From the NCBI GenBank assembly GCA_016721625.1, contig JADKHR010000001.1, positions 2,611,807 to 2,675,806 of the forward strand: DNA of 64,000 bases, written 5' to 3'. Of the stretch, positions 1 to 60,953 are shown one piece after another. The notes under the pieces were generated by a model. That model did no database searches. It worked only from the letters and a program-made list of their open reading frames with translations, and had not been told where the DNA came from. Made by a program: the position numbers and the translations under genes. Position 1 is the stretch's first letter; every line of letters begins with the position of its first letter. This DNA is from Elusimicrobiota bacterium. GTDB lineage: Bacteria; Elusimicrobiota; Elusimicrobia; FEN-1173.

Positions 1-1
1 G

Positions 2-143
2 GTCCCCCTGACTCTGGCGGAGGTTCAGGAAGTGAAGGACTCCTTCGTGAACACCTTGGTGGGCGTCTACCACACCCGCGTCCATTACCCCACCAGCCAG
101 GAAACCGACCTGGAACATCGTTCCCCGCCGCCGCGGGCCAAGT
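2..143 (+). CDS. 3' end of an upstream CDS running off the window start (partial, function unknown)
   Basis: Open frame from the window edge ending ...VGVYHTRVHYPTSQETDLEHRSPPPRAK with TGA at 141-143 overlapping the GTG start of ybeY (GTGA overlap, typical operon coupling); no recognisable motif. Confidence 0.3.
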
Positions 144-609
144 GAAAATCCTTTTCGCGGCTCGGGGGACCCCACCGGCGGGGGTGGAGAATCTCGCCCG
201 GCGGGCGGTTCGGCGAGTCTTTGCGGGTCGCCGCCCGGTGCCCCGGGGCGAAATGAATATCGTGTGGACCACGCGGGAAGACCTCCGCCGGATGAACCGG
301 CGGTTCCGCCGAACGGACCGGTTTACGGACGTCATCGCTTTCCGCCACGGACCTTCCGGCGTCATGGGCGAATTTCCTTTGGGCCCGCGGGGGGACGAGC
401 CTTTCGGGGATCTCTACATTGCCGTGGACCAAGCCCGGGTCAACGCCCGCCGGTTTGGTGTTTCGCCAGCGGAGGAGCTTGTCCGCCTGGTGGTGCACGG
501 AAGTTTGCATTTGTTGGGGTACACCGATTACGAACCCGCCGAAAAGGCCCGCATGTGGGCCGCTCAGGAACCCATCGTCCAATGCGTCGTGAAAAACGCC
601 TCCGTCTGA
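142..609 (+). CDS. ybeY: endoribonuclease YbeY (16S rRNA 3'-end maturation factor)
   Basis: 155-aa ORF with the YbeY metal-binding signature HGSLHLLGYTDYEP (H-x-x-x-H-x5-H); followed by CorC-family genes as in the conserved phoH-ybeY-corC neighbourhood. Confidence 0.85.
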   Translation: MKILFAARGTPPAGVENLARRAVRRVFAGRRPVPRGEMNIVWTTREDLRRMNRRFRRTDRFTDVIAFRHGPSGVMGEFPLGPRGDEPFGDLYIAVDQARVNARRFGVSPAEELVRLVVHGSLHLLGYTDYEPAEKARMWAAQEPIVQCVVKNASV

Positions 610-633
610 GTCCTTGGTCCACGTCCTGATCCC

Positions 634-1662: not shown

Positions 1663-2654
1663 CGGTTCTTTTGATCAAAGGCGGGTGCGCCCTGGTCCTT
1701 TTGGTCCTGAGTGCGGGGTTCTCTTTGGCCGAAACGTCCTTCATGAGCCTTTCCCGTTTGCAGTTGGCGCGGCTCGGCAGGGCGCGGCCGGGGCGTTTGG
1801 ACTTCTGGCAAAAGGATCCCGACCGCGCGCTGGCCGTCCTCCTCCTCATGAACAACGTGGTGAACGCGGGTCTGTCCGTCCTGTCCGTCTCCATGGCGCT
1901 GGACGCGGCGGCGTTCCTCCATATTCCGTTCCGCTGGGGCCGGGGGCTCTTCCCGCTGGCGAGCGGAGTCCTTCTGTTGTTATTGGGCGAAGTGGTCCCC
2001 AAAGTGGCGGCCCGGGCCCGCTCCGAATCTCTGGCGGTGGCGCTGGCCCCAGCGGTGAAGGTCCTGACGGATGTCTTAGGGCCCCTGATGCATGGATTGT
2101 TGGAAGGGGTGGAAATGTTGCTTTCCTGGCTCTCCCGAACGGTGCGCACGGATCGGGCCCAGTGGAATCAGGACGTGATCCGCGCTCTTTTGGACAACGC
2201 CCCCTTGGGGTCCCCCTTGCGCCGGGTTCTGAAGAACGTGGTCGGGTTCGCCCATACGCCTGTTTCGGCGGTCATGGTGCCTCGTTTGGAAATCGCCGCC
2301 GTGGACTTGCGGGCCGGGTTCGACGCCGTGATCGCCCGGATTTTGTCCTCGGGCTATTCCCGTCTTCCCGTCCATCGGGGGTCGATTGACGCCGTTGAAG
2401 GAATGGTCTATTCTAAGGACCTTCTGGCGCAATTGCGGAGCGGGCCGTTGATCGCTTTGGAAGATTTGGTGCGCCCCCTTCCGCGCGTTCCGCCGGACGC
2501 CCCCCTGTCCCGGCTCCTCCGCGACTTTCGCGCGGGCCATCACCACATGGCTCTTGTGGTGGAACCGGGGGGGAAAGTGTTGGGTCTCGTCACGCTTCAA
2601 GATACGCTGGAAGCCATCGTTGGAGAAATCGCCCAGGAACCCCGTCTCTTATGA
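1659..2654 (+). CDS. CNNM/CorC-HlyC family membrane protein (DUF21 + CBS pair + CorC_HlyC), paralog 2
   Basis: Same architecture as the preceding gene (SLAETSFMSLSRLQLARL... DUF21; C-terminal LQDTLEAIVGEI); start ATGA-overlaps upstream stop and its own stop overlaps mgtE start. Confidence 0.8.
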   Translation: MTVLLIKGGCALVLLVLSAGFSLAETSFMSLSRLQLARLGRARPGRLDFWQKDPDRALAVLLLMNNVVNAGLSVLSVSMALDAAAFLHIPFRWGRGLFPLASGVLLLLLGEVVPKVAARARSESLAVALAPAVKVLTDVLGPLMHGLLEGVEMLLSWLSRTVRTDRAQWNQDVIRALLDNAPLGSPLRRVLKNVVGFAHTPVSAVMVPRLEIAAVDLRAGFDAVIARILSSGYSRLPVHRGSIDAVEGMVYSKDLLAQLRSGPLIALEDLVRPLPRVPPDAPLSRLLRDFRAGHHHMALVVEPGGKVLGLVTLQDTLEAIVGEIAQEPRLL

Positions 2655-4033
2655 GCCCCCTTCATCCCTCCGCCCTCTTCGTTCCGGAAATCAAACAACT
2701 CCTGGCCCAAAAAGATTACAGGGAGTTGAAGCAGGACCTTCTGGAAATCAACCCTGCCGATCTGGCGGAGGGGTGGGACCGTTTCACCCCCTTTGAGCGG
2801 ATCGTGCTTTTTAAACTCCTGCCCATCGTCCGCGCCTCGGAACTGTTCGAGGAGTTGGACGTCCCGCAACAGGCGCACCTCTTCTCCGCGTTGGATCTGG
2901 GGGTTTTGGGCCCGATTTTGGAAGAGCTGGGGGCGGAGGCCGCGCAGGCCCTGTTCCACCGTTTGCCCGAGAGGACGGTGCGGCGCATGGCCACCATCGT
3001 GCGGCGAGCTCAGTCGGCGCGCGCGGAACGGGAATTGGTCTTCCCTCCCCACACGGCCGGTTCGCTCATGCACACGGATATTTTGAATCTGGGCCCCAAA
3101 CTGACGGCCCAGCAGGCGTTGGATTTGGTTCGCGCCTCCAGCCGCCTTCACCGCATGAGCGACCTTCACGTCCTTTACGTGACGGACGAGCAGGGCCGGC
3201 TCATGGGCGTGCTGACGCCGCGGTCGCTGATCGCGGCGCCGCGGGACATGCGGCTCTCCCAAATCATGGGTCCGGTGCAACTCATCAAGGTCCGCGCCGA
3301 CTTGGATCAGGAGGAGGCCGCGAAGGTCTTTTCGAAGTACAAGCTCCTGGCGGCCCCGGTGGTGGACCAGGACAACCGGCTCTTGGGCGTCCTGACCGTC
3401 GACGACATTCTCCACGTGATCAGCCAAGAAGCCACCGAGGACATCGCGAAGATGGCCGGAACCACGGCGGAAGAATTGGAAGACGCTTCCGCCGGCCGCG
3501 TGGCGCGGCTCCGGATGCCGTGGCTCATCATCACCTGCCTGGCCGAGGTGGGGGTGAGCGCCATCGTGCGGGGATTTGAGCACACGCTGGCCCAGGCCGT
3601 GGCCCTGGCCAGCTTCATGCCGTTGATCGCGGCCATGGGGGGGAACGTGGGCGCCCAGTCGTCGACTCTTTGCGTCCGCGGTCTGGCCACGGGCCACATC
3701 CAGCCCAGCCAATGGCGACGAATGGCCCTGCGGGAACTGCGCGCGGGGATCTACATGGGGTTGGGATACGGGTTCGCGGTGGGGCTGGCCGCCTCCGTCA
3801 TTTATTGGGGCCGCTTCGGCCTGGCGTTTCCCTTGGTGGTGGGCGTCGGGGTTCTCTTTTCCATGACCGTGGCTTCCACCATGGGGTCCGTGGAACCTTT
3901 CGTTCTCCACCATTTCAAAATGGATCCCGCCGTGGCCGTGGGGCCTCTGGTCAGCACCATGACCGACCTCCTGAGCGTGACCGCCTATCTTTCTCTCGCC
4001 ACCGCCGCCCTCTCTCTGGGATGGCTCCGCTGA
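2651..4033 (+). CDS. mgtE: magnesium transporter MgtE
   Basis: 460-aa ORF with MgtE N-domain, CBS pair and C-terminal 5-TM MgtE channel domain (…MPLIAAMGGNVGAQSSTL…); family-level recognition of the motifs. Confidence 0.85.
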   Translation: MSPLHPSALFVPEIKQLLAQKDYRELKQDLLEINPADLAEGWDRFTPFERIVLFKLLPIVRASELFEELDVPQQAHLFSALDLGVLGPILEELGAEAAQALFHRLPERTVRRMATIVRRAQSARAERELVFPPHTAGSLMHTDILNLGPKLTAQQALDLVRASSRLHRMSDLHVLYVTDEQGRLMGVLTPRSLIAAPRDMRLSQIMGPVQLIKVRADLDQEEAAKVFSKYKLLAAPVVDQDNRLLGVLTVDDILHVISQEATEDIAKMAGTTAEELEDASAGRVARLRMPWLIITCLAEVGVSAIVRGFEHTLAQAVALASFMPLIAAMGGNVGAQSSTLCVRGLATGHIQPSQWRRMALRELRAGIYMGLGYGFAVGLAASVIYWGRFGLAFPLVVGVGVLFSMTVASTMGSVEPFVLHHFKMDPAVAVGPLVSTMTDLLSVTAYLSLATAALSLGWLR

Positions 4034-4040
4034 TCGCCTC

Positions 4041-4680
4041 ATGCAGGTGAACGTGGAGGCGGTGGTTTTGGCGTCGGAGGCCCTGTCCGAGAAAGACAAG
4101 CGCTTGACTCTTTTTACGCGGGAACGGGGCCGGTTGTACGCCCGGGCCTCGGGCGCTCTCCGTCCCGGGGCCAAACTGGCGGCCGCCACGGAACCCGGGG
4201 TTCGGGCGCATCTTCGGCTTTGGTTGCCGGAAGGGGCGGCGGGCGGGGCGGGTGACGGGCGGCGGCCTGGTGGACGGCCATCCGAAACTCCGGGCGGAAT
4301 GGGTCCGGCTGACCTCGGCGCTTTTTTTCTGCGAATGGACGGACCGCCTCACCCCGCTCCTTCACCCGTCCCCGGAAAAGTTCGATCTCCTGGCGCTGGC
4401 CCTGGTCGCTCTGGAAAATCACGAAACGGCCATGGTCCGGGGGGCCTTTCTGGCCCAGTTCGCCCGGCTGGCCGGGTATGGGCCGATCCCGGGGGTCCGG
4501 GCGGAAGTTTTGGACGCGTGGGATTTCGTTGAACCGCTTGCGGCGCCGGAGGCTCACAAGGTGGAGCGGCAAGTGATACAATTCTTCGCGCCTCTTCTGA
4601 ATCGGCCTTTGAAAACGCTGGTTCAGGGGCGGGCTCTTCAACGCTTTCTCGATAAACCGCGAGTGGGACAACGCCGATGA
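4041..4680 (+). CDS. recO: DNA repair protein RecO; reading frame interrupted (frame change around 4235-4255 in a G-rich run)
   Basis: N-terminal OB-fold part ([38 protein letters not shown]…LRLWLPEG) is in one frame (ORF 4041..4532, which then runs into G/P-rich nonsense), and the RecO helical part (…[30 protein letters not shown]… to 4680) is in the frame of ORF 4252..4680; the junction lies in ggggcggcgggcggggcggg. Confidence 0.6.
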
Positions 4681-5537
4681 TTTTTCAAGACATCATTCTT
4701 TCGCTCCATAAATTTTGGGCCAAACAGGGCTGTCTGTTGTGGCAACCCTACGACATCGAAAAAGGGGCCGGCACTTTTAACCCGGCGACCTTTCTCCGAT
4801 GTTTGGGGCCGAAACCCTGGGCGGTGTCCTACGTGGAACCTTCCCGCCGTCCGACCGACGGCCGTTACGGTGAAAACCCCAACCGCCTCCAGCACTACTA
4901 TCAATATCAGGTGCTCATGAAACCCGCCCCCGCCGGCATCCAGGACCTTTATCTTGCTTCTCTGAAAGCCATCGGGATCGACCCCAAACGCCACGACATC
5001 CGGTTCGTTGAAGACGATTGGGAATCCCCCACCCTGGGGGCCTGGGGGTTGGGTTGGGAAGTTTGGTTGGACGGCATGGAGATCACGCAGTTCACCTATT
5101 TCCAACAGGTGGGCGGGATCAACCTGAACCCCATTTCCGTTGAGCTGACCTACGGCTTGGAACGGCTGGCCATGTATTCCCAAAAGAAAAACAGCGTCTA
5201 CGACGTTCTCTGGACCGCCGACACCACCTACGGGCAGGTTCATCTGGAGGATGAAAAGCAATTCTCCCGCTACAATTTTGAGGAGGCGGACGTGGAAAAA
5301 CTGCGTCGGCACTTCGATGATTGGGAAGGGGAAGCTAAACGCCTGGTGGAGAAGGGGTTGGTTTTGCCCGCCTACGACGCGGTCATGAAATGTTCCCACC
5401 TCTTTAATTTGCTCGATGCCCGTCGCGCGATTTCGGTGACGGAACGGGTGACCTACATCGGTCGTGTGCGCGGATTGGCCCGCCGCGCGGCGGAATCCTA
5501 TCTCAAAGCCGATTCTCCCGCAGAGGCGGTTTCATGA
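4677..5537 (+). CDS. glyQ: glycine--tRNA ligase alpha subunit
   Basis: 286-aa [44 protein letters not shown]… is a textbook GlyQ; ATGA overlap with recO stop and with glyS start. Confidence 0.95.
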
Positions 5538-7651
5538 AGGACCTGCTCCTGGAAATCGGGACCGAGGAAATTCCCGCGCGGTTCCTTCCCGCCGCCTTAA
5601 GCGGGCTTCATTCCTCGGGCCAGGCCGCGTTGGAGAAGGCCGGTTTGTCGTTTAAGGGATCGCAGGTCTATGGGACGCCCCGTCGGCTGGCTCTGGTGGT
5701 CGAGGGGTTGGTCGACAAAGCCCGGGACCAGGAACAGGAGTTTTTAGGTCCCGCCCTGGCCCAGGCCAAGGACGCGGGGGGGAACTGGACCCCGGCCGCC
5801 CAGGGGTTTGCCCGTTCCCAGGGCACGACGCCGGAAAAATTGGATGTCCGGGAAACGGACCGGGGCGCCCGCCTTGTTTTTCTGAAACGGACCCCCGGGG
5901 CCGCGGCGGAAAAAATTCTTCCCGCGTTGCTCCCCGAACTGATTCGGTCCCTCACGTTTCCCAAAGGCATGGTGTGGGAAGAAAGCCACTTGCTCTTTGT
6001 TCGGCCCATCCGATGGATCGTGGCTTTGTACGGAGCGAAACCGGTGGCGTTCACTCTGGCCGGGGTGAAGTCGGGGCGCCGGACTTGCGGGCTCCGCTTC
6101 CAGACCCGGAAACCCTTTGACGTCCCGGCGCCCAGCCGGTACGCGGCGGTCCTAAAGAACCACTGCGTGATCGTGGATCCCGAGGAGAGGAAAGACCTCA
6201 TCCTGAAACAAATCCACCAGGTGGCCAAAAGCCATCACGGGCACGTGCCGGTGGAGGAATACCGGGAACTCCTGGAGGAAGTCACTCATTTGGTCGAACA
6301 TCCCGTCGCGGTGTTGGGAAAGTTCGATCCGCGTTTCCTAGCGGTCCCCAAAGAAGTGCTGATCACCTCGATGAAAAAGCATCAGAAATATTTCCCGGTG
6401 TTTAAAGACGCGACCCGCCAGGTGTTGCTCCCGCATTTCATCGCCGTGCGGAACGGTTTTTCGGACAACCAATCCGTCGTCCGGGAGGGCTACGAGCGCG
6501 TCTTGTCCGCGCGGTTGTCGGACGCGGCCTTTTTCTTCGAAGAACATTCCCGCCAAACCTTGGCGAGTCGGGTGCCGGACCTCCGGGGGGTCGCGTTCCT
6601 GTCTCCGTCTCTCAGTTTGGCCGACAAAACCGAACGGGTCCAGCGCCTCACGGACCGTCTCTGCTTGGAGGTTCTTCGGACTTCGTCCGCTGTTCAGGCG
6701 GCCGCTTCTCGCGTGGCCCTCCTGGCCAAAGCCGATCTGACGACGGGCCTGGTGGGGGAATTTCCGGAACTGCAGGGGATCGTGGGGCGGCTCTACGCCG
6801 AGAAAGACGGCGAACCGTTGGAGGTCTCGCGGGGGATCGAAGAACACTATTGGCCGCTCACCGCCGACGGTCCCTTGCCGAGCGAGGAATCGTCGGCCTT
6901 GGTCTCTCTGGCGGATAAAATCGATACGTTGGCGGGAAACTTTCTCGCCGGCAAAATCCCATCGGGTTCCCAGGATCCCTATGGGCTCCGCCGGGCGGCC
7001 GTGGGCGTTCTCCGGCTGATCGAGTCCCGAGGCTGGGGCGTTCGTCTGACGGACCTGATGGCGGGAGCCCTGGACCTTCTTCCGACCGATCTGGGCGACC
7101 GTCCTCGGGCGGCGCGGGCCTTGGCCGACTTTTTTCAACAACGATGGGGTGCCTTGGCCGAAGCCAGGGGGTTCCGTTCGGACGAGATCGACGCCGCGGC
7201 CGCCGCGGGGTTCGAGGACGTGGTCGACGTCTGGGCCCGTCTCTCCGCCATTCAAGGCGTCCGCCGAAACCCCGATTTCGCGCCCCTCTCCATCGCCTTC
7301 AAACGGGCCGCTAACCTATTGAAGCAAGCGGAAAAGAAAGGGGAGTCTTTGACGGGGCCGGTGCGAAAAGACCTTTTTCGAACCGAGGCGGAAAGGGCCC
7401 TGGGATCGCGCCTGGCGGAAATTCAAAACGAGGTCGAGCCGTTCCTGGCCGCCCGCGACTATCCGAAGGTTTTGGCTCGGTTGGTATCCCTGAGGGGGCC
7501 CGTCGACGCTTTCTTTCTTTCCGTCGTGGTGATGGACCCGGACCCCGACCTCCGGCGAAATCGTTTGGCCCTCCTGGCCGGGGTTCGGTCCCTCTTCGGC
7601 CGGGTGGCCGATTTTTCCCGGCTTCAGGACACGCCGTCCGCCTCCGCCTAG
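5534..7651 (+). CDS. glyS: glycine--tRNA ligase beta subunit
   Basis: 705-aa ORF immediately after glyQ with overlapping start; N-terminal [19 protein letters not shown]… is characteristic of GlyS. Confidence 0.9.
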
Positions 7652-7900
7652 ATGATCGCGGCTGGTTTCACGTTGGCGGTGGTGGCCCTTTTTTTTCTGG
7701 CCCGTGGATTCGCGCGGGGGCTCGATGGAACCGATCGGCCTCGTTTCGTCCACGAAACGCCCCTCTGGCCGAAGGACCTCGCGCCCGTGGTTAAATCGGT
7801 GGACCGATGGCGGGACGAGGGACGTTTGACAGGGGAAGAACACGAGAAGTTGAGGTGGCTTCTGCGGGAAGACGCGGACCGAATCAGCCCCCGCCCTTGA
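7652..7900 (+). CDS. small membrane-anchored protein with SHOCT-like C-terminal helix (hypothetical)
   Basis: 82-aa ORF whose ATG directly abuts the glyS stop (TAGATG); N-terminal TM helix MIAAGFTLAVVALFFLARGF and C-terminal RLTGEEHEKLRWLLRED resembling the short SHOCT oligomerisation motif; no other support. Confidence 0.3.
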   Translation: MIAAGFTLAVVALFFLARGFARGLDGTDRPRFVHETPLWPKDLAPVVKSVDRWRDEGRLTGEEHEKLRWLLREDADRISPRP

Positions 7901-7925
7901 CAGCCCCGCGTTTTTGGATTATAAA
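7897..7925 (+). promoter_or_regulatory. near-consensus sigma70-type promoter (TTGACA-17 bp-TATAAA) upstream of the LysM gene
   Basis: ttgaca at 7897-7902, 17-nt spacer, tataaa at 7920-7925; a second TATATAAG-like box follows at ~7938; about 90 nt upstream of the 8020 start. Confidence 0.45.
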
Positions 7926-8019
7926 GGGACCGGTGTTATATAAGAGAGGAATGTTGCCCGCTCATCCGGTCCGCCGAGAACATTTCCGGAGAATCATCCC
8001 TCTTCATCAGGAGGCCTTC

Positions 8020-9099
8020 ATGAAATTCGCATCTGTGCTTGCCCTGTTGGTGGCTCTCACTCCGCTTTCGCGGGCCGCGGAATTTAATCAGGAAGACGCG
8101 ACTCTGCCCTCAGCAGAGGCTCCATCCGCGGAAAACGTCAAAGCTTCCGAGCCGTCCACAGGTGGACCTGTGGAAGCTTCGGTGCCGACCACCAACGTGA
8201 CCCTGGCGGCCCCGGAGACCGTTCCGGAGGCGACCGTGACTCCCGTCGCGCAAGAAACCCCGTCCGAGCCGCCCGCTGTCGTGGCGCCGAGCGGGGCTTC
8301 CCACCGGGTGGTGAAGGGAGACACGCTGTGGGATTTGGCGGGCTCTTACCTCAAGAATCCGTACCTTTGGCCGAAAATTGTTGAGGCCAACAAGGGACGG
8401 ATTGAGAATCCCGATCTTATTTTCCCGGACCAAGATTTCATCATCCCGTCGGTCGAAGCGGCCGAAAACCTGGCGGTGGCGCCGGTTCCCGAAACCCCGG
8501 CGGAAACTCCCCAGGAAGCTCCGACCGCCTCTCCGGAGGTCGCCGCGGAAGCCGTGGCCCCCGTCCCCGAACCGGAGGCGGAGGTGAAAGCCCCGGCCCA
8601 GGCGGAGGACATGGACGCGGCACCAGCCCCTGCCAAAAAGACAGTGGAGTCCGTGGAGGACGTGGCGGAGACCCCGCCGGAGCCCGGGATCAATGAAACG
8701 AGCGACGAACGGGAAGCCAAACGGAAAAACAAACAGGCGGTTCCCGGAGCCGGGTTCATGGGCGGAATGGCGGATTCTTTTGTCGCCGACGAGAACTGGG
8801 AATATGACGGGTACGTCCTTCGGGACCGAGATCAACGGATGATGATTTCCCAGGGAGATGTGGTGTTCTTAAACATCGGCGCGGCGTCGGGAGTTAAACC
8901 GAAAATGTCGGCCCATGTCTACCGCGTGGGAAAACGGGTTCAGGACCCCTTCTTAAAGAAGAAGACCGGGCGGATGGTCAAGCGCGTAGGGACCGTTATC
9001 GTGACCGGGCAGATTACCGAGGAGGGCTGTACGGCCGTGGTGACCAACAGCCTGGAGCCGATCCGCGTGGGAGATATTGTCAAATTCGCGTCGCGCTGA
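8020..9099 (+). CDS. secreted LysM peptidoglycan-binding domain protein with Pro/Ala/Glu-rich low-complexity linkers
   Basis: Signal-peptide-like start MKFASVLALLVALTPLSRAAEF (the listed ORF 7807..9099 has no RBS-supported earlier start); LysM motif HRVVKGDTLWDLAGSYLKNPYLWPKIVEANK…DLIFPDQDFIIP; long PEPE/APA-rich segments. Confidence 0.75.
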   Translation: MKFASVLALLVALTPLSRAAEFNQEDATLPSAEAPSAENVKASEPSTGGPVEASVPTTNVTLAAPETVPEATVTPVAQETPSEPPAVVAPSGASHRVVKGDTLWDLAGSYLKNPYLWPKIVEANKGRIENPDLIFPDQDFIIPSVEAAENLAVAPVPETPAETPQEAPTASPEVAAEAVAPVPEPEAEVKAPAQAEDMDAAPAPAKKTVESVEDVAETPPEPGINETSDEREAKRKNKQAVPGAGFMGGMADSFVADENWEYDGYVLRDRDQRMMISQGDVVFLNIGAASGVKPKMSAHVYRVGKRVQDPFLKKKTGRMVKRVGTVIVTGQITEEGCTAVVTNSLEPIRVGDIVKFASR

Positions 9100-52614: not shown

Positions 52615-52679
52615 ACAAAAGCCATGCTCCGTCGGACGCAACGGGCGGCTAAAGAGATACAGGAAGGGTTTACCTCCCC

Positions 52680-52708
52680 TTAATCCCCTCCTTGGGAAGG
52701 AGGGGATT
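52680..52708. repeat. REP-like palindrome TAATCCCCTCCTT-GGG-AAGGAGGGGATTA (13-bp stem)
   Basis: perfect inverted repeat read from the sequence; same core as copies at 57170-57192 and 57298-57318. Confidence 0.5.
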
Positions 52709-52842: not shown

Positions 52843-53184
52843 TTATCCGATCGCCAGGCGGCCCGTTTCTCCCGTTCGAATCCGAATGACTTGGCCCAAA
52901 TCGAGAACAAAGATTTTCCCGTCGCCGACGTTCCCTGTTCGCCCGGCCGATTGAATGGCCTCCACCGTCGGCTGAACATATTCCTCGTTCACCGCGACTT
53001 CCACCTTCACTTTCTTAAGCAGGCTCCCGCCCTCTTTGTGGCTCCGGTAGACTTCCGAAATGCCTTTTTGACGGCCCCGACCCATGACGTTCGAGACAGT
53101 GACCAGGTGGATGGCCTTCTGTTCCAAGGCGTCCAGCACGTCGTCCAGCCGGTCCGGTTGAATGATGGCAACGATGTATTTCAT
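52843..53184 (-). CDS. glnK: nitrogen regulatory protein P-II (GlnB/GlnK family), paired with the upstream amt
   Basis: MKYIVAIIQPDRLDDVLDALEQ… with T-loop GRGRQKG…Y and C-terminal …GDGKIFVLDLGQVIRIRTGE; start codon at 53184 (listed ORF has a spurious N-terminal extension). Confidence 0.85.
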   Translation of the reverse strand: MKYIVAIIQPDRLDDVLDALEQKAIHLVTVSNVMGRGRQKGISEVYRSHKEGGSLLKKVKVEVAVNEEYVQPTVEAIQSAGRTGNVGDGKIFVLDLGQVIRIRTGETGRLAIG

Positions 53185-53206
53185 AGGGTTTTCTCCTGAA
53201 AAAAGA

Positions 53207-54532
53207 TTAGTCGATGATCGTGTAGGCCGCTTCGCGGTGTTGGGTGAGATCAAGGCCGATGCGTTCGTCCTGATCGGAAACCCGGAGCCCCACCAACACA
53301 TCCACCAGTTTAAGCAAGACGATGCTGAGAACGAAGGAGTAGATTCCCGTCACCAGTACCGCCTTGGTTTGGATCCAAACCAGCCCGGGGTTCCCGTGCA
53401 AAAGCCCATCGGCCCCCGCGGGATTGACGGTTTTCGTGGCCCAAATCCCCGTGGCGATGGCGCCCCAAATGCCGCCCACCCCGTGAACGCCGAAGGCGTC
53501 CAGGGAATCGTCATAACCCAATTTCACTTTCACGTACATCACGGAAACGAAACAAATGAGGGCGACTGTGATCCCGATGGCCATGGCCCCGAGCGGCGTG
53601 ACGTACCCCGCCGCCGGTGTGATGGCCACGAGCCCCGCCACGGCCCCCGTGATGGTGCCCAGCATGGTGGCGTGCCGGTTCACGAGGACATCCAACCCGG
53701 CCCACACAAGCCCGGCGGTGGCCGCCGCGATGTGGGTGGAGACGAAGGCCGTGGTGGCGAGACCCCCGGCGCCCAGGGCGCTCCCGCCGTTAAACCCAAA
53801 CCAACCGAACCACAACATCCCCGCGCCCAAGACCGCGAAGGGAAGGTTGTGGGGCGGAGACAGGCGGGTGGGGAACCCCCGCCGTTTCCCTAAAACCAGA
53901 GCCGCGGCCAGCGCCGCCACGCCGGCGTTGACGTGGACCACGGCGCCGCCCGCGAAATCCAGGGCCCCGGACAGTTTCAAAAACCCTCCCGTGCCCCACA
54001 CCCAATGGGCCACGGGGTCGTAGACGATGGTGCTCCAAAGAAGGGAAAAGAGAACGTAGGCGGAAAATTTCATCCGTTCGGCGAAGGCGCCCAAAATAAG
54101 GCCCGGCGTGATGATGGCGAACATGCATTGGTAGATCATGAAGGCCTGGTGCGGAATGGTGGGCGCGTAGTCGGTATTGGGCGTCAGTCCCACGCCGTTC
54201 AACCCGAGCCATTGAAGGTTTCCAACGAGGCCCCCAATGGTGGGCCCGAAAGAGAGGCTGTACCCCATCACCACCCATTGCACCGTGATCAGTCCCATGA
54301 CCGCGAAACACTGCATGAGAACGGACAACATGTTCTTTCGTCGCACAAGCCCGCCGTAAAAAAAGGCGAGGGCCGGCGTCATCATCAAAACCAACGCGGC
54401 GGACACCAGCACCCAGGCGGTATCTCCGGAACTCACGGCGGAAGGGGTGATCTCTCCCGCGGTTTCCGCCCATAGGGCGGGCGCCAGGAGCGAGGCAAAA
54501 ATACCAAGGACCAAATGTCGAATTCGTTTCAT
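53207..54532 (-). CDS. amt: ammonium transporter (Amt/MEP family) with signal peptide
   Basis: Start MKRIRHLVLGIFASLLAPALWA at 54532 preceded by AAGGAGG; Amt signatures (…MMTPALAFFYGGL…, twin-His region, …DFAGGAVVH…). Confidence 0.9.
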   Translation of the reverse strand: MKRIRHLVLGIFASLLAPALWAETAGEITPSAVSSGDTAWVLVSAALVLMMTPALAFFYGGLVRRKNMLSVLMQCFAVMGLITVQWVVMGYSLSFGPTIGGLVGNLQWLGLNGVGLTPNTDYAPTIPHQAFMIYQCMFAIITPGLILGAFAERMKFSAYVLFSLLWSTIVYDPVAHWVWGTGGFLKLSGALDFAGGAVVHVNAGVAALAAALVLGKRRGFPTRLSPPHNLPFAVLGAGMLWFGWFGFNGGSALGAGGLATTAFVSTHIAAATAGLVWAGLDVLVNRHATMLGTITGAVAGLVAITPAAGYVTPLGAMAIGITVALICFVSVMYVKVKLGYDDSLDAFGVHGVGGIWGAIATGIWATKTVNPAGADGLLHGNPGLVWIQTKAVLVTGIYSFVLSIVLLKLVDVLVGLRVSDQDERIGLDLTQHREAAYTIID

Positions 54533-54668: not shown

Positions 54669-54692
54669 TGTCTGAATCTGTCGGCACAGCGC
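54669..54692. promoter_or_regulatory. perfect 24-bp palindrome TGTCGGCACAGC-GCTGTGCCGACA immediately downstream of the amt -10 box (putative operator)
   Basis: read directly; core ACAGCGCTGT also present in the second amt leader (60849-60864). Confidence 0.4.
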
Positions 54693-54696
54693 TGTG

Positions 54697-54726
54697 CCGA
54701 CAAAGGATTCTACACTGCCCTGATGG
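54697..54726 (-). promoter_or_regulatory. sigma70-type promoter for amt-glnK (TTGACA-18 bp-TAGAAT on the - strand)
   Basis: reverse complement of tgtcaa (54721-54726) and attcta (54697-54702) with an 18-nt spacer. Confidence 0.5.
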
Positions 54727-54744
54727 TCGCTGTCAATTTATTCA

Positions 54745-54872
54745 GTAACTGAATTTTCCGAGTTCGACCTTTCCGCGGAAAACCTAAAAGCTCCCGGCGG
54801 TGTAGGCCAGGACCATGGGCATGCCGAGGAAAACGATCAGGTGCATGATCGCGAGGTTTTTTTCGGAGGGGT
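54745..54872 (-). pseudogene. diverged remnant of a cytochrome bd subunit II (cydB) 3' end, imperfect direct repeat of 56100-56224
   Basis: - strand translation …SEKNLAIMHLIVFLGMPMVLAYTAGSF*VFRGKVELGKFSY* versus intact cydB C-terminus …SEKTLAIMRLIAFLGMPMVLAYTAVIYWVFRGKVELGKFSY*; 36-nt block cggcggtgtaggccaggaccatgggcatgccgagga identical in both copies; flanking differences are mostly synonymous third-position changes toward A/T. Confidence 0.6.
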
Positions 54873-54873
54873 C

Positions 54874-56055
54874 TTACGAGGCGATGATTTCTCCATCCCA
54901 TAGTCGGCGTAGGAAATCGGCCCAGGGAAGGACGTGCACAAGGCCCATTTGACGCGGGCGGGGGTCGTGCGTCACCAGGATCAGCTTTTTGACCGTGTAT
55001 TCTTCCGCGAAGGCCATGAGACCCTTGGCGTGGCGTGGTTGGGCCATGTCCGTGGATTTAACTTCCACCGCGACCTCGTGATCTCCGAGAATGAAGTCAA
55101 CTTCCAACTGGGAGGCCGTGCGCCAATAGGAGAGGGGATACCGTATCCCCGAGTAATGGCTGTGCGCCAATAATTCTTGAAAATGGAAGTGCTCAAAAGC
55201 TTTTCCATAAGATTCGCTTTTCGGAACGATGGGTCCCCTCTTGAGAAGAAAATTAGCGAGTCCCACATCAAAGTAATAAAATTTCGGCGATCGGATCACC
55301 CGCCGTTTCGGCCTTTTTTGAAAAACGGGGAGAAAGCGACCCACCAACGTGTCCTCCAATATCTCAAAGTATTGCCGCACGGTGGGACCGCTGACGCCGC
55401 ACTCTTGGGCAATATTCAGTTCATTGACGATTTCCCCATTGCTGAAAGCCGCCGATTCCAGGAACCGATGGAAAGCGGGAACATTGCGCACCAGCGCCTC
55501 TTGGGCGATCTCTTCTCGGAGATAGTCGACAACATACGACTGCATCATTTCCGTGTAATTATTGGAAAGGTAGTGCCGGGGAATCAACCCACGGTTCAAA
55601 GCCCAGTCCAGGCGAAAGCGGGGGATTTCCCGGGAGACCAAGGGAAACATTTCATAGCGAAGGGCTCGCCCTCCCAGCAGGTTCCCGCCCCCTCTTTTAA
55701 GTTTTCGAGCGCTGGATCCACACAGGATGAACTGGAATTTTGAGTGGGTGATCAGCCATTGCACCTCATCGAGAAGAGCCGGCACCTTTTGAACTTCATC
55801 GATAATGATGGGACGACGGGCGAGGGTCGGGTTTTCCAACAGTTCTTCCCGCAGAAGAGCAGGTCTTTTTTGAAGACGGTCATAGTCATCCGACAAAAGC
55901 AAATTATAAAACCGGGCCGTCGGGAACGATTTCTCCAGCCAGGTGCTTTTGCCCACCTGCCGGGGTCCCCAAAAAAAGCACGTCTCGCGCTTTAATCGGG
56001 GAAATGTTTGCATGCGATTAAACATGATAAAAGAAAGTATACTTTGTTTTATCAT
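54874..56055 (-). CDS. AAA+ ATPase of the DUF4143 family (COG1373-type ATP-binding protein); low-GC island
   Basis: Walker A GPRQVGKST, Walker B IIIDEVQ, C-terminal DUF4143-like region; codon usage clearly AT-richer than the contig; the listed ORF start 56142 is an artefactual extension antisense to the cydB 3' end; start taken at the ATG at 56055 (alternative 56025). Confidence 0.8.
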   Translation of the reverse strand: MIKQSILSFIMFNRMQTFPRLKRETCFFWGPRQVGKSTWLEKSFPTARFYNLLLSDDYDRLQKRPALLREELLENPTLARRPIIIDEVQKVPALLDEVQWLITHSKFQFILCGSSARKLKRGGGNLLGGRALRYEMFPLVSREIPRFRLDWALNRGLIPRHYLSNNYTEMMQSYVVDYLREEIAQEALVRNVPAFHRFLESAAFSNGEIVNELNIAQECGVSGPTVRQYFEILEDTLVGRFLPVFQKRPKRRVIRSPKFYYFDVGLANFLLKRGPIVPKSESYGKAFEHFHFQELLAHSHYSGIRYPLSYWRTASQLEVDFILGDHEVAVEVKSTDMAQPRHAKGLMAFAEEYTVKKLILVTHDPRPRQMGLVHVLPWADFLRRLWDGEIIAS

Positions 56056-56056
56056 G
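56023..56056. repeat. AT-rich 34-bp near-perfect palindrome CATGATAAAAgAAAGTATACTTTgTTTTATCATG overlapping the ATPase start codons
   Basis: read directly; single central mismatch pair; contains both candidate ATG starts of the ATPase gene on the - strand. Confidence 0.4.
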
Positions 56057-56096
56057 ATGAAGAAGGGCCTTTTTCCGCCCGGCGCGTCGCGCCGGA

Positions 56097-57113
56097 TCAA
56101 TAGCTGAACTTGCCCAGCTCCACTTTCCCTCGGAAAACCCAATAGATGACGGCGGTGTAGGCCAGGACCATGGGCATGCCGAGGAACGCGATCAGGCGCA
56201 TGATCGCAAGGGTTTTTTCGGAGGAGGCGGCGTTGTAGATGGTGAGGTTGGCGGCGGGGTCGAGGCTGGAGACGGCCAGGTTGGGGTAAAGGGCCAGGCC
56301 GAAGAGGAAGACGAAAGCGGCAATGGACGCTCCGCTGGACAGAAACGCTTCAAAGGGCCTGCCGCGAAAAACAGCCCGGGGAATGTTGGCGACCGCCAAC
56401 ACGTTCAACACGACCACGGCCCACGCCCAAGGGTGGTGGGTGAAATTTTCCACGGCGCGGGGAACGGAAACCAGGGTGAAGATCGTCGTCAATAAATAGG
56501 TGATTAAAAACCAGCCGAACAGCCGCCAAATCCATCCCTGCAAACGCGCCTGGATCGGCCCCTCTGTTTTAAGGTAGAGATAAATGGCGCCGTGCATGGC
56601 CGCCGTGACGATGGCAAAAAGGCCGACCAGAACAGGATAGGGGGTCAGCAAGCCAAAAAATCCAATTCTCAGTTCTCCGTCCAACCCGATCGGAAGGCCG
56701 CGGAAACAGTTTCCCACGGCGGCGCCGAAAAGGAGGACCGCGGTGAGGCTTGATCCGAAAAAAGTCCAGTCCCAAAAAGATCGCCAGATTTTAGAGGGGC
56801 GCTTGCTCCGGAACTCCATGGACACCGCCCGGAGGATCAGGCAAAGGACCAACAGCATAAAGGCCGCGTAAAGGCCGGAAAACATCGTCGCGTAGGCCCG
56901 GGGAAAGGCCGCGAAAAGGGCGCCGCCGAACGTGACCAGCCAGACTTCATTGCCGTCCCAGAGGGGGCCGATGGAGTTCATGAAAATCCGACGTTCCTCA
57001 TCCGTCCGAGCCAGGGGATGCAGGATCCCCACGCCCAAATCGAACCCATCCAAAATCCCGTAACCCGCCATTAAAACGCCCAACAAGACAAACCAGAAAA
57101 TGTGTAAGTCCAT
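56097..57113 (-). CDS. cydB: cytochrome bd ubiquinol oxidase subunit II
   Basis: Start MDLHIFWFVLLGVLMAGYGILDGFDLGVG (cydB signature) at 57113; 8-9 TM helices; the listed ORF carries a short spurious N-terminal extension. Confidence 0.9.
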   Translation of the reverse strand: MDLHIFWFVLLGVLMAGYGILDGFDLGVGILHPLARTDEERRIFMNSIGPLWDGNEVWLVTFGGALFAAFPRAYATMFSGLYAAFMLLVLCLILRAVSMEFRSKRPSKIWRSFWDWTFFGSSLTAVLLFGAAVGNCFRGLPIGLDGELRIGFFGLLTPYPVLVGLFAIVTAAMHGAIYLYLKTEGPIQARLQGWIWRLFGWFLITYLLTTIFTLVSVPRAVENFTHHPWAWAVVVLNVLAVANIPRAVFRGRPFEAFLSSGASIAAFVFLFGLALYPNLAVSSLDPAANLTIYNAASSEKTLAIMRLIAFLGMPMVLAYTAVIYWVFRGKVELGKFSY

Positions 57114-57169: not shown

Positions 57170-57318
57170 CCCCCTCCTTGCGAAGGAGGGGGAACACGGC
57201 TCCTCCATAAATGGGATTTCCCTTCCCAGGGAAGGCCCGTCGTCCGGATCCTCATGATCCGGGTTGCAAAAAGACCCACGCGGGCTTGTCTTTTTTTCCC
57301 CTCCTTCCCAAGGAGGGG
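57170..57318. repeat. cluster of GC-rich hairpins in the cydA-cydB spacer including two REP-like palindromes CCCCCTCCTT-GCG-AAGGAGGGGG and CCCCTCCTT-CCC-AAGGAGGGG
   Basis: 57170-57192 (10-bp stem), 57221-57235 (CCTTCC-cag-GGAAGG), 57244-57262 (CCGGATC-ctcat-GATCCGG), 57298-57318 (9-bp stem); all read directly. Confidence 0.5.
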
Positions 57319-57413: not shown

Positions 57414-58826
57414 TTACTCTTTTCCTTCCGTCAGAGATCCCCCGGCTTTTAGATCTCCCACGGTTTGAATGAACCCGTGGGAGGGATCCCCTGGGGCCAG
57501 GAAGGACATTTCCTCGGGGCCTTGTTTGATCTTGTGGTCGATCACGGAAACCCAAACGGCAAAAAGAAGGGCGTAGATTACGCCGAACATCAGGATGGAA
57601 CCCAGCACTTGGTTCGCCCGCACCACGGGGGAAAGGGCTTCGGAGGTGCGAAGCAAGCCATAGACGATCCACGGTTGGCGTCCCACTTCGGCGGCCACCC
57701 ATCCCAATTGGTTGGCGGCCACGGGAGCGAGAACGGCGAAAACGAACGTCCACAAAAGGCCCCGCTGTTCAAACAGTCGGCCGCGGGCTCTCAGCCAGGC
57801 GGCCAGGCCCGTCAGTCCCATCATGAAAAATCCGAGGCCGACCATCACGTGGTAGGAATGAAAAGAAACCGCCACGGGCGGCCGGTCTTCTTTGGGGAAC
57901 TTGTCCAAGCCGGTCACCGGTTTTTTGAAATCGCCATACACCATGAAACTCAGGAGGCCCGGGACGGCGATGCCTTTGGTGGTTTCTGTTTTCGCGTCGG
58001 GATGGCCCACGACGTAGAGAGGGGTTCCTCCCTCGCCCGTTTTGAAATGGCCCTCAAAGGCCGCCAGCTTGGCCGGCTGGTGTTCCGCCACCACGCGGGC
58101 CTGGTGGTGGCCGGAAAGAAGTTGGCCCCAACTGGAGAGCGTGGCAAGGAGGAGCGCCACCGAAAACGCTTTCTTAGAGATGTCCAGGTGGCGGCCTTTC
58201 AGGATGTAATAGGCCGTGACGCTCATCACGAAAAAGCCTCCCATCGAGAAGGCGCCCAGCCAGACGTGGACCAGCCGGTCCATACTCGAGGGGTTAAACA
58301 CCACGGCCCAAAAATCGGTTATCTCCGCCCGGGCGGCCAGTCCCTCTCCAACGATGTGGAACCCCGCGGGAGTCTGTTGCCAACTGTTGGCGACGGTGAT
58401 CCAAACCGAGGAGAAGATCGATCCCAGAAACACCATCACGGTCGAAAAGAAGTGCATGCGGGGGGAAACTTTGTCCCAACCGAACACCAAGACCGCCAAA
58501 AACCCCGACTCCAAGAAAAAGGCAAAAATCCCTTCCGCCGCCAGGGCCGACCCAAAAACGTCTCCCACGAAACGGGAGTAGTTGGCCCAGTTCGTCCCGA
58601 ACTGGAATTCCATGACGATCCCCGTGGCGACGCCCACGGCGAAGTTGACGGCAAAAATCCGCGTCCAGAACTTGGCCATGGATTCATACTGGGGGTCTTT
58701 CGTTTTTAAATACATGCCTTCCATGAAAACCATCAGCGCTCCCAGGCCGATGGCGAGCGGGGGAAACAGGTAATGAAACATGATGGTCAGCGCGAATTGA
58801 AGACGGGAGAGGAAAAGAACGTCCAT
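57414..58826 (-). CDS. cydA: cytochrome bd ubiquinol oxidase subunit I (short Q-loop type)
   Basis: [29 protein letters not shown]… matches the CydA N-terminus; GWMQNP-like WQQTP quinol-binding region; start at 58826 (earlier in-frame ATGs 58835/58862 less likely). Confidence 0.9.
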
Positions 58827-58898
58827 GGGACACATTGTGAAATAAGAAAGGGCGGGGGTCAAGGACCCCCGCCCTTTCTGGTGAAGCGTTGGGAACGG

Positions 58899-59240
58899 CT
58901 AGCCGATGGCGGCTTTGCCCTTTTCTCCGGTGCGGATACGGACGACTTCTTCGAGAGGGACCACGAAGATTTTTCCGTCGCCGATGTTCCCGGAACGCGC
59001 GGCCTTGGTGATGGCCGCGATGCAGGGTTCGACATACTCGTCGTTCACGGCGATATCGAAGCGGACCTTTTTCAGGAGGTTAACCTCATACTTCGCGCCG
59101 CGGTAGCTTTCCGTGTAGCCCTTCTGCCGGCCGGAGCCGAGAACGTTGGACACCGTCATGAGGTGAATTTGGGCGTCGTCCAGGGCTTTTTTAACTTCCG
59201 CCACTTTGTGCGGTTGAACCATGGCAATAATAAGTTTCAT
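58899..59240 (-). CDS. glnK: nitrogen regulatory protein P-II (GlnK-type), second copy
   Basis: [56 protein letters not shown]…[27 protein letters not shown]. Confidence 0.85.
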
Positions 59241-59246
59241 GGATGA

Positions 59247-60800
59247 TTACCTCCCGGACCCGGCCAATTTAGGCTCGGGTTTTGAATCACCGCTGTCGCC
59301 GGCGGGGGCCAGACCGTATTCCGTCATGTAGATTTGGAATCCAGCGTAGGCTTCCATTCCGTGTTCGCCGATGTCAAGGCCGCGGATTTCTTCTTCGCGG
59401 CTCACCCGGAGACCCATCATGGCTTTCACGACCAACCAGAAGATGACCGAGAGCACGAGCGTGAACAGGATCGTGGTCACGGACCCCAATAGCTGAACTC
59501 CCAGGAGCTTGAATCCGCCTCCGTAGAAGAGCCCGTTTCCGGTGCCGACGCCGGTGATTTTGTCGACGGCGAAGAGACCCACGGCGAGGGTGCCCCAGAT
59601 GCCGTTGGTCAAGTGCACGGCCAAGGCGCCCACGGGGTCATCCACCTTGATTTTGTCGTAGAACAATACGGCAAAGACCACGAGGATTCCGCCGATGCCG
59701 CCGATGATAATAGAGGCGGGCAGAGTCACATAGGCGCAAGGGGCGGTGATGGCCACCAATCCGGCCAAACAGCCGTTGATGGTCATGCCCAGGTCGGGTT
59801 TCCCTAAAACCATCCACGCTGTGATCGTCGCGGTCAAAAGGCCCGCGGCGGCGGCCAGGTTGGTGGTGTTCAGGATGTGGCTGATGGCGCCGGCATCGGC
59901 GGCCATGGTGGACCCGGGGTTAAACCCGAACCAGCCGAGCCAGAGGATCAAACACCCTAGGGTCGCGGAGGTCAAGTTGTGACCCGGGATGGCGTTGGGG
60001 GTTCCGTCGGGACGGAACTTCCCAATGCGGGGGCCCAGGATCAAAATCCCGGCCAAGCCCGCGACGCCGCCCACGGTATGAACCGCGGTGGACCCGGCAA
60101 AGTCCCAGAAGCCTTTCTGGGCCAACCATCCGCCGCCCCATATCCAGTGGCCGGTAATCGGGTAGGCGATGCCCACCAGGAGGGCGCTGAAGACGATGAA
60201 GCTCACGTATTTGATCCGTTCCGCGACGCAACCGGAGACGATGGTGGCCGCCGTGCCCGCGAAAACCAATTGGAAGAAGAATTTCGCGGAGAGGGGAACG
60301 CCCGTCCAGTTGATGGCGTTATAGACGCCGGAATAGGCCGACCCCGTGGCGGGACTGTTGTCCGCCCCGGAGATCATGAAGAGGCCTTTCAACCCCATGA
60401 ACCCGTTGCCGTCGCCGAACATGACGCCCCAGCCTAAGACGTAAAAGGCCAGGGAACTCACGGCGAAGACGATGAAGTTTTTGGAGAGGATGTTGACGGC
60501 GTTTTTCGCGCGGCACATGCCCGATTCCACCAGGGCGAACCCGGCGTTCATCCAGAACACCAGGAAGGCCGTGACGAGAACCCAGATGGTGTCGGCGACG
60601 ACTTTCCGATCGGTGAGGCCCTGCTCAATGGCGGCCAAACGCGATTCCAGGGCCGGGGCCTGATCGGCCACCGCCACCGTTCCAGCGGGAGCGGGGGTGG
60701 GTTCCTCCGCTCGGAGGGCGACCGGCAAGAGACCGGCGCCCCAGGTCAAAAGCGCGAAGAGTCCACCGCGCCAAAGACAACGTTTTGTTTTTGACAGCAT
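59247..60800 (-). CDS. amt: ammonium transporter (Amt family) with long signal-peptide-containing N-terminal extension, second copy
   Basis: Start [24 protein letters not shown] at 60800 preceded by GGAGGAACTT; Amt motifs (…[13 protein letters not shown]…, DFAGSTAVH…); upstream part of listed ORF lacks RBS support. Confidence 0.85.
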
Positions 60801-60810
60801 AAGTTCCTCC

Positions 60811-60836
60811 ATTTTATTTAAGCGCCCGAGGGCGCT
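60811..60836 (-). promoter_or_regulatory. hairpin GCGCCC-TC-GGGCGC followed by U-rich tract immediately upstream of the amt SD (attenuator-like)
   Basis: - strand RNA: GCGCCCUCGGGCGCUUAAAUAAAAUGGAGGAACUUAUG. Confidence 0.35.
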
Positions 60837-60848
60837 GTTGATTTTTTG

Positions 60849-60864
60849 GAGACAGCGCTGTCTC
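60849..60864. promoter_or_regulatory. palindrome GAGACAGC-GCTGTCTC in the second amt leader sharing the ACAGCGCTGT core with 54669-54692
   Basis: read directly. Confidence 0.35.
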
Positions 60865-60935
60865 GTGAAAACCGGCACAAAAAAAAAGCCCTTTCCGAAA
60901 CAGCGGAAAGGACAGTCTTTGTCCAGACGATGCAT

Positions 60936-60953
60936 CAACACACCCGTGTGTTG
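60936..60953. promoter_or_regulatory. perfect palindrome CAACACAC-CC-GTGTGTTG overlapping the predicted transcription start of the second amt (putative operator)
   Basis: read directly; lies 10-30 nt downstream of the -10 box. Confidence 0.35.

Follow-up and report, generated by a model that had tools for sequence, protein, structure and literature searches.

An ATPase gene inserted at the 3' end of cydB in an Elusimicrobia lineage and flanked by direct repeats of the gene end

Organization of the cydB locus

The DNA analyzed here is a 64,000-nt stretch from an Elusimicrobiota bacterium (assembly GCA_016721625.1, contig JADKHR010000001.1, positions 2,611,807 to 2,675,806 of the forward strand), called the window below. 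On its minus strand cydB, the gene for cytochrome bd subunit II, is followed by a gene encoding an ATPase with AAA_14 and DUF4143 domains, then by a non-coding remnant of the cydB 3' end, and then by amt and glnB (Table 1). The ATPase gene is inserted at the 3' end of cydB and is flanked by direct repeats of this target. The insertion leaves a complete cydB, encoding a protein 99% identical to P0121 and of the same length (338 amino acids, aa). An earlier note on this DNA had read the locus as the outcome of site-specific integration by an element that now lacks an integrase.

The ATPase open reading frame (ORF) is the only one between the two repeat copies. The 71-nt leader in front of it contains a GC hairpin (CCGGCGC-GAC-GCGCCGG) right behind the cydB stop codon, and the ATPase start codon lies inside a 44-nt palindrome. 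Pfam analysis of the five ORFs from 52.8 to 58.9 kb revealed neither transposase domains nor an integrase, and, with the flanking ORFs judged by eye, the interval of 49.1-60.9 kb holds no large ORF that is unaccounted for; the absence of an integrase claimed by the note is thus borne out for about 5 kb on either side. An Rfam scan of 52.4-59.4 kb gave zero matches.

Table 1. Features of the cydB region in coordinates of the window, in their order on the minus strand
Feature	Position	Strand	Description
cydA	57414-58862	-	
cydB	56097-57113	-	cytochrome bd subunit II, intact, 338 aa; Pfam Cyt_bd_oxida_II 8e-100
Upstream repeat copy (X1)	56097-56224	-	last 42 cydB codons and stop codon
Identical block in X1	56150-56186		37 nt
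Spacer or cassette leader	56026-56096	-	71 nt
Palindrome with ATPase start codon	56018-56039 and 56040-56061		44 nt, two arms
ATPase ORF	54874-56025	-	AAA_14 and DUF4143, 383 aa
Downstream repeat copy (X2)	54742-54869	-	non-coding remnant of cydB 3' end, in-frame TAG
Identical block in X2	54795-54831		37 nt
Distal arm of the remnant (B2)	54742-54794	-	72% identical to gene copy
Promoter-like site for amt	54707-54736	-	TTGACA, 18 nt, TAGAAT; directly 3' of remnant stop codon
amt	53207-54532	-	ammonium transporter; downstream neighbour, presumed native
glnB	52843-53184	-	follows amt

The duplicated end of cydB

The duplication of the cydB 3' end beyond the ATPase gene, first described in the earlier note, is confirmed as a direct repeat of 128 nt with 84% identity and a start-to-start spacing of 1355 nt. 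An identical core is also present, although its length is 37 nt and not 36 nt as had been counted. Read in the cydB frame, the remnant yields ...SEKNLAIMHLIVFLGMPMVLAYTAGSF*VFRGKVELGKFSY*, the internal stop being TAG, and its GC content is 0.531 compared with 0.562 for the gene copy, in agreement with the description of the remnant as (slightly) AT-richer and interrupted.

The first 75 nt account for 5 of the differences between the copies and the final 53 nt for 15, an uneven distribution (Fisher p = 0.0012). Over its last 12 codons, the distal arm departs from the gene copy at 11 positions, all of them synonymous third-position changes (chance about 6e-6). Immediately before this synonymous stretch, four adjacent codons are scrambled (GGG AGC TTT TAG in the remnant versus GTC ATC TAT TGG in the gene), and in the proximal arm the differences are mainly non-synonymous second-position changes. 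The arms had been said to differ almost only at third positions, which is correct for the last 12 codons of the distal arm but neither for the proximal arm nor for the scrambled codons. Since neutral decay of a fresh duplicate cannot produce differences that are all synonymous, the distal arm descends from a once-functional cydB end of another lineage or allele, possibly the displaced native one, and the characterization of this arm as diverged yet protein-conserving stands. Compared with the cydB ends of relatives, the two arms show 7 and 8 differences per 42 nt (counted by hand), and neither this near tie nor the third-position GC content (GC3) of the arms, which rests on too few codons, favours one arm as native.

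The scrambled codons of the remnant, GGGAGCTTTTAG (54792-54812, minus strand), form part of a 7-bp hairpin that they complete directly after the ATPase gene, with a U-rich tract behind it. This hairpin may act as a terminator shielding amt from read-through, a weak suggestion, because the gene copy folds overall as well as the remnant does.

The inserted gene and its product

The ATPase contains an N-terminal AAA_14 domain (1.1e-19) followed by DUF4143 (5.3e-33), both past the curated Pfam cut-offs, and is matched by seven PADLOC models of PDC-S01 (the best at 5e-49). It is identical to GenBank MBL0059738.1 from an Elusimicrobia metagenome-assembled genome; NCBIfam has no family for it, and no sequence homologue was found in the Protein Data Bank (PDB). 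Across alignments of 36-46 homologues, the Walker A motif GxxGxGKS, the Walker B motif DE, and the nuclease motif E-x-D...E-x-K show little or no variation, and all three are intact in the window protein. DUF4143 is reported to belong to the PD-(D/E)XK superfamily (PMC3424549), and the protein is predicted to combine an AAA+ ATPase, a winged helix, and a PD-(D/E)XK nuclease. The gene is under purifying selection, the ratios of synonymous to non-synonymous codon differences from three strains being 41:7, 18:3, and 49:8.

By composition the ATPase gene is foreign: the insert has a GC content of 52.5% against 61.9% in the window, and a GC3 of 0.61 against 0.69-0.80 in the neighbouring genes. This agrees with the earlier description of an AT-rich insert of 1.2 kb encoding only the DUF4143 ATPase.

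In published surveys, PDC-S01 is listed as the fourth most common defence system across all prokaryotes when candidate systems are counted (PMC12988326), and PDC candidates were proposed for being embedded inside other defence operons (bioRxiv 10.1101/2024.01.29.577857). The anti-phage role of PDC-S01 is that of a candidate only. The ATPase family is rare in phage records (4/50,697), and the phage and plasmid collections contain only distant matches with less than 40% identity; no vehicle was found there. The ATPase would be cargo, a candidate defence or conflict gene, rather than the enzyme that inserts the cassette.

Insertion of the ATPase gene in related strains

The arrangement of cydB, ATPase gene, and remnant, with the two cydB ends diverged from each other, is shared by the window and three further independent assemblies, L166/L167, L181/L182, and L183 (L-numbers denote comparison loci or contigs from other assemblies, L086-L165 being metagenomic loci of the ATPase family). 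The other three are 93-97% identical to the window in nucleotide sequence. Because four independent assemblies share this structure with diverged copies, it is not an assembly artefact.

The predicted empty site, with cydB directly before amt-glnB, is found in L175, a related Elusimicrobia genome, where cydB is 82% identical to that of the window and the gene order is amt-glnB-cydA-cydB-amt-glnB, with a single cydB end and no ATPase gene. The gene is likewise missing from L168-L174, in which cydB adjoins either a response-regulator gene or a UvrD-type helicase gene. In these empty-site relatives cydB is only 82-87% identical to the window, and no empty site was found within the species itself. 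Among 80 cydB loci from other genomes, the closest only 72% identical, none has the ATPase gene or a second cydB end. These comparisons uphold the proposed insertion at the cydB 3' end.

It could still be argued that the locus bears no mobility signature at all, the repeat being either an assembly duplication or an ancestral local duplication in which the ATPase gene is an old resident. Apart from the origin of the window in a metagenome-assembled genome, nothing speaks for this, and we consider it most improbable. Assembly duplication, named as an objection in the earlier note, is contradicted by the four assemblies with diverged copies; an ancestral syntenic arrangement, the other objection, by the empty sites in related species and the foreign GC content; and close homologues of the gene occur at other places.

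In the window, cydAB is flanked by two amt-glnB pairs (52843-54532 and 58899-60941), whose amt proteins are 36% identical to each other. The double arrangement is also seen in L175, and other relatives have only the upstream pair.

Strain-specific mosaics of the remnant

The junction between the ATPase gene and the remnant is common to the four strains, and the remnants form three different mosaics. In the window and in L183, the remnant is gene-like through the end of the 37-nt block and then passes into the diverged arm and amt. In L181, it remains gene-like for 33 nt more, and only the last 21 nt of the diverged arm follow, again with amt. In L166, it is gene-like to 8 nt past the stop codon and is followed by a prepilin-type gene and the contig end. 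Over 136 nt, the remnant of L166 shares about 93% identity with the gene end, so that the repeat reaches the equivalent of window position 56089, and the homology between L166 and the window ends exactly at 54742, the stop codon of the remnant.

Within each strain, both copies carry common strain-specific variants, which argues for gene conversion between them; the copies have thus recombined after the insertion. In L166 the two copies differ inside the 37-nt stretch, the identity of which is specific to the window and L183. Since the breakpoint differs between strains, the identical core is a strain-specific outcome and not a conserved attachment (att) core. The interpretation of the block as an att core must therefore be dropped, and of the att-like picture of an identical core with diverged arms there remains the divergence of the distal arm, the core being unconserved and the remnant a strain-specific mosaic.

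Two origins of the diverged arm have to be weighed. Identity between the distal arm and the gene copy is 72-74%, close to the 75-77% observed for cydB between species of the clade, and cydB and amt-glnB are similarly diverged from L175 (74.9% and 75.5%, respectively). Because the order cydB-amt-glnB matches L175 and both parts are about equally distant from it, we favour amt and the distal arm as native. The diverged arm would be the displaced native cydB end, which has kept its native neighbour amt, whereas the end that cydB has today would have come with the cassette.

Alternatively, the cydB end may have been duplicated exactly when the insertion took place, the state seen in L166, with the prepilin gene as the native neighbour; the diverged arm and amt-glnB would then have entered the window lineage by later homologous recombination with a crossover inside the remnant. 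The nearly complete L166 remnant, extending past the stop codon, would be expected from such a history, as would the end of L166-window homology exactly at the remnant stop codon and the near-interspecies divergence of the distal arm. However, the gene order in common with L175 and the equal divergence of amt-glnB and cydB fit vertical descent, and the differing junctions of L181 and the window require two imports, or an import plus a conversion. We hold this sequence of events to be possible but doubtful. An exact match of the L166 prepilin protein was found only on its own 5-kb contig, and a homologue with 69% identity (L184) lies in an unrelated context.

The ATPase gene of the window is closest to that of L181 (98.1%), and the surrounding region is closest to L183 (96.8% versus 95.7% for L181). 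This difference suggests recombination between strains at the locus.

Other features of the region

In the window, cydA and cydB are separated by a spacer of about 300 nt that is missing in relatives, where the gap is 3 nt. The spacer contains an inverted pair (57171-57194 and 57295-57318) of a hairpin resembling repetitive extragenic palindromes (REP), CCCCTCCTT...AAGGAGGGG, a further 35-nt copy of which lies between a helicase gene and glnB (52672-52706). The pair looks like a small repeat element inserted within the cydAB operon.

Between the near-consensus promoter of amt and the gene itself lies a perfect 22-nt palindrome, GTCGGCACAGCGCTGTGCCGAC, which may be a regulator site for nitrogen control. 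The promoter and palindrome region (54679-54736, minus strand) is partly conserved in strain L181.

The ATPase gene as a minimal mobile unit

Homologues of the ATPase gene that are 91% and 85% identical adjoin a glycosyltransferase gene and a MarC gene, and their DNA homology to the window is confined to the segment from about 31 nt before the start codon to about 19 nt before the stop codon. Proteins with 63-68% identity occur in records named Uhrbacteria, Elusimicrobia, Deltaproteobacteria, and Binatia. Similarly, the 80 metagenomic loci of the family include many pairs with 80-96% DNA identity in differing contexts, whose homology ends 60-320 nt upstream of the start and between about -20 and +80 nt around the stop; in one 96%-identical pair, the ends are sharp and there is zero flanking repeat. 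The mobility of the gene surmised in the earlier note is thus corroborated by close homologues whose surroundings are unrelated and whose homology reaches no further than the ORF and a short leader, and these sequence comparisons show that the gene travels as a self-contained single-gene unit.

The leader has a recurring feature of its own. In the 90 nt before the start codon in L086-L165, palindromic boxes of the TTATCATGATAA type are found upstream of most family members and across many contexts. There are one to three such boxes, the last of which holds the ATG and is represented in the window by the 44-nt palindrome; no Shine-Dalgarno sequence is visible, and in some loci TTGACA overlaps the first box. 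The boxes probably serve as promoter and operator, are portable, and allow a leaderless start, which suggests a self-regulated leaderless expression unit workable across phyla.

Flanking repeats and cassette arrays in the family

In 54 testable loci, the 500 nt upstream of the gene were compared with the 520 nt downstream for same-strand repeats. Flanking repeats were detected in 11 of these, compared with 3 of 324 controls (1/126 shifted sham positions and 2/198 cydB loci; p = 5e-8), and the enrichment persists when only 7 independent cases are counted (p = 5e-5). Repeat lengths range from 44 to 374 nt and identities from 79 to 97%; the repeats lie immediately next to the unit delimited by homology and are locus-specific rather than multi-copy elements. 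The duplicated segment is the 3' end of a PIN-toxin gene in L102, the 3' end of comM in L144, and a 374-nt intergenic stretch with 97% identity in L111. In L102, the segment after the downstream repeat copy (2171-2727) matches a segment of L099 (1948-2504) that lies there 3 kb upstream of the upstream copy, a rearrangement between loci that are otherwise collinear.

At two target genes the repeats form arrays. In L086, five copies of the gltB 3' end, all including the last 38 nt of gltB, split an island into cassettes with wHTH-PRTase, the ATPase, PIN, and a nucleotidyltransferase together with a second ATPase. The island (1-8530) holds two AAA_14-DUF4143 genes, PIN, a minimal nucleotidyltransferase, wHTH-PRTase, and NTP_transf_8, and an IS200-like Y1 transposase is located at its edge. 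Similarly, 3'-end fragments of comM separate cassettes in L144, L145, L149, and L151, where the ATPase gene and a 175-aa ORF are parted by comM ends in an order that varies between genomes (L144, 5700-7960; L149, 3500-7262; L145, 390-6232). In L149, two DUF4143 ATPase genes stand in tandem, followed by a DUF4268 gene. Both arrays look like successive integrations at one attachment site. Duplicated target ends therefore bound cassettes of this family elsewhere, as the att-like reading of the cydB locus implied, and because similar flanking repeats recur in unrelated genomes, this looks like a recurring route for the insertion of small integrase-free cassettes.

No tRNA genes were found at the repeats of the related loci, and none of the recombinase families appears among the matches listed (25 of 73 families) for 64 neighbouring ORFs, which are rich in PIN and MazF-type toxins. 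The search for an integrase recognizing cydB ends in relatives, which the note had recommended, thus gave no candidate among those matches.

Could the ATPase itself be the mobile enzyme? In such a self-mobilizing element, the ATPase-nuclease would cut the target with widely staggered nicks, or prime copy-in repair, and insert its own gene; long variable target duplications would result, and the palindromic boxes at the start would be its recognition site. Under this hypothesis, PDC-S01 genes would form the active part of a new minimal class of mobile elements that consist of one gene and a 5' palindromic box and insert next to gene ends. Duplications of 44-374 nt do abut a unit holding this gene alone, the catalytic residues of the ATPase and nuclease are invariant, and a conserved palindromic cis element accompanies the gene. 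Moreover, L166 and L111 resemble plain duplications, the extra ATPase copies in the arrays could act in trans, and the family is reported to be very abundant and horizontally spread (PMC12988326). Nevertheless, array cassettes lacking the ATPase gene (PIN, wHTH-PRTase, and the 175-aa ORF) are bounded by the same repeats, and the ATPase is for this reason not necessarily the inserting enzyme. About 80% of the loci, including the recently moved 96%-identical pair, are free of repeats; there are no terminal inverted repeats, and the palindromic box is unlike the duplicated targets. A fresh duplication cannot explain the synonymous differences in the distal arm of the window remnant, and we know of no PD-(D/E)XK/AAA+ protein that acts alone as a transposase. 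We therefore regard self-mobilization, and with it a new class of elements, as unlikely.

The earlier note had also offered a decayed island, that is, a larger integrase-bearing element at the cydB 3' end from which later deletions spared only the ATPase gene. Integrase-free att-like repeats are leftovers of such islands, and degenerate elements with partial target copies have been described in tycheposon islands (bioRxiv 10.1101/2020.12.28.424599). However, only 4 nt separate the end of the ATPase ORF from the remnant, and only 63 nt separate its start from the repeat in the extended form of L166. Independent loci have tails that are just as short (-2 nt in L144 and 36-108 nt in others), compact single-gene units are thus found at other sites too, and the same minimal unit is found in different contexts among close homologues. 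Random deletions would not halt repeatedly at both att sites, and we think decay of a larger island quite improbable.

Comparison with known mobile elements

With respect to a site-specific element, the locus has flanking target repeats and an empty counterpart but neither an encoded recombinase nor a fixed identical core. A close parallel is with cis-mobilizable elements (CIMEs) and their accretion at gene 3' ends, for which ICESt1 and ICESt3 at fda in Streptococcus thermophilus are reportedly an example. In both cases, direct repeats of the target 3' end enclose the element, the target gene is intact, att-like sites lie on both sides, and tandem arrays with partial target copies between the elements occur, as in L086 and the L144 group; like CIMEs, the ATPase cassette has no integration or transfer genes of its own. 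In contrast to them, the present unit is a single gene of 1.2 kb, its repeats are long (50-370 nt) and variable with a crossover position that shifts between strains, and an integrase specific for the cydB end was not found among the matches listed for the related loci.

In the tycheposon islands of Prochlorococcus, successive integrations leave partial target copies between elements, older elements are pushed away from the target gene, and integrase-free remnants are scattered (bioRxiv 10.1101/2020.12.28.424599). The partial target copies that part successive elements are a common trait of both systems. Tycheposons, however, hit tRNA genes, carry tyrosine or serine recombinases and often replication modules, and are several kb long, whereas the targets described here are ends of protein genes and the cassettes lack recombinase and replication genes.

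Integron cassettes are also promoter-poor or self-contained single-gene units that form arrays, with the ORF ending right before the recombination site. They differ in that the present locus has no attC-type 3' palindrome and neither IntI nor attI; the separators are ends of housekeeping genes, and the palindrome is located 5' and includes the start codon. Insertion sequences of the IS1634/IS1549 type carry a DDE transposase gene and terminal inverted repeats, and the target duplications that they generate vary in length from tens to hundreds of bp. The long variable duplications are similar, but the present cassette has no DDE transposase, and inverted termini are absent at the cassette ends defined by comparison.

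Finally, Campbell-type integration, known chiefly from laboratory suicide vectors and integrative plasmids, duplicates a homologous segment of any length carried on a circle, needs no recombinase of the element, and places the crossover in the longest identical stretch, which resembles the situation at cydB. It differs in being known mainly from laboratory constructs, and a natural circle of a cassette and a host segment is hypothetical.

The architecture of AAA_14 and DUF4143 (COG1373) and the model matches place the ATPase with PDC-S01. The literature naming DUF4143 or PDC-S01, in the portions of text available, contains no description of it as a mobile cassette with flanking duplications or a 5' palindrome. 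Overall, the cassette is comparable to known elements at gene 3' ends, and its new aspects are the single-gene units, the targeting of protein-gene ends, and the long variable repeats.

A possible mechanism of insertion

The reading that we prefer, with a probability of roughly 0.55, is that of a minimal integrase-free cassette inserted by recombination within a copy of the end of its target gene. The cassette of about 1.22 kb comprises a short leader with an operator-like palindromic box holding the start codon, and the ATPase-nuclease gene. It was acquired by an ancestor common to at least four of the sampled strains, all of one Elusimicrobia lineage. A circular form carrying its own cydB 3' end would have recombined with the chromosomal cydB end, yielding the order gene end, cassette, gene end. 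The insertion duplicated about 130 nt of the cydB end, the upstream copy completing a working cydB and the downstream copy being left as a non-coding remnant before the amt promoter. Later recombination or gene conversion between the copies would have created the mosaic, in which the proximal 75 nt were kept nearly identical to the gene and the distal 53 nt stem from a different once-functional cydB end, most simply the displaced native one.

The recombination may have been performed by a site-specific recombinase acting in trans or by host homologous recombination of the Campbell type. The former fits the L086 array, because its copies share one distal boundary; the latter fits the variable and long repeats, the varying crossover points, and the lack of a detected recombinase.

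Several observations weigh against this mechanism. No recombinase gene was found around the insert or, among the matches listed, in related loci, and the circular intermediate is one that we infer. The near-complete L166 remnant, which continues for 8 nt beyond the stop codon, is equally compatible with simple duplication of the target. Among the duplicated segments there are long non-coding ones (374 nt at 97% in L111 and 251 nt in L094), which is unusual for att sites, and the flanking repeat is missing from about four fifths of the family loci, the sharp-ended pair among them. In addition, the proximal arms are far more alike than the distal arms, a pattern that demands later gene conversion.

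Implications

PDC-S01 has been reported among the commonest "defence" genes of bacteria and archaea, where it is still a candidate. The self-contained cassette, its conserved palindromic box at the start codon, and the flanking target duplications seen at about one locus in five bear directly on how PDC-S01 spreads, and they provide a testable picture of how genes enter genomes without a nearby integrase. They also call for caution with defence candidates proposed from embedding, because a gene that is inserted, or inserts itself, between other genes looks the same; mobility of the cassette could also yield embedding within defence operons. If the unlikely case of a self-inserting PDC-S01 proved true, it would explain the abundance of the family, its wide transfer, and its frequent "embedded" position in other operons. 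For the organism itself, the insertion explains the cydB-like pseudo-fragment in the window, and incoming DNA may be the source of the 3' end that this core respiratory gene now has.

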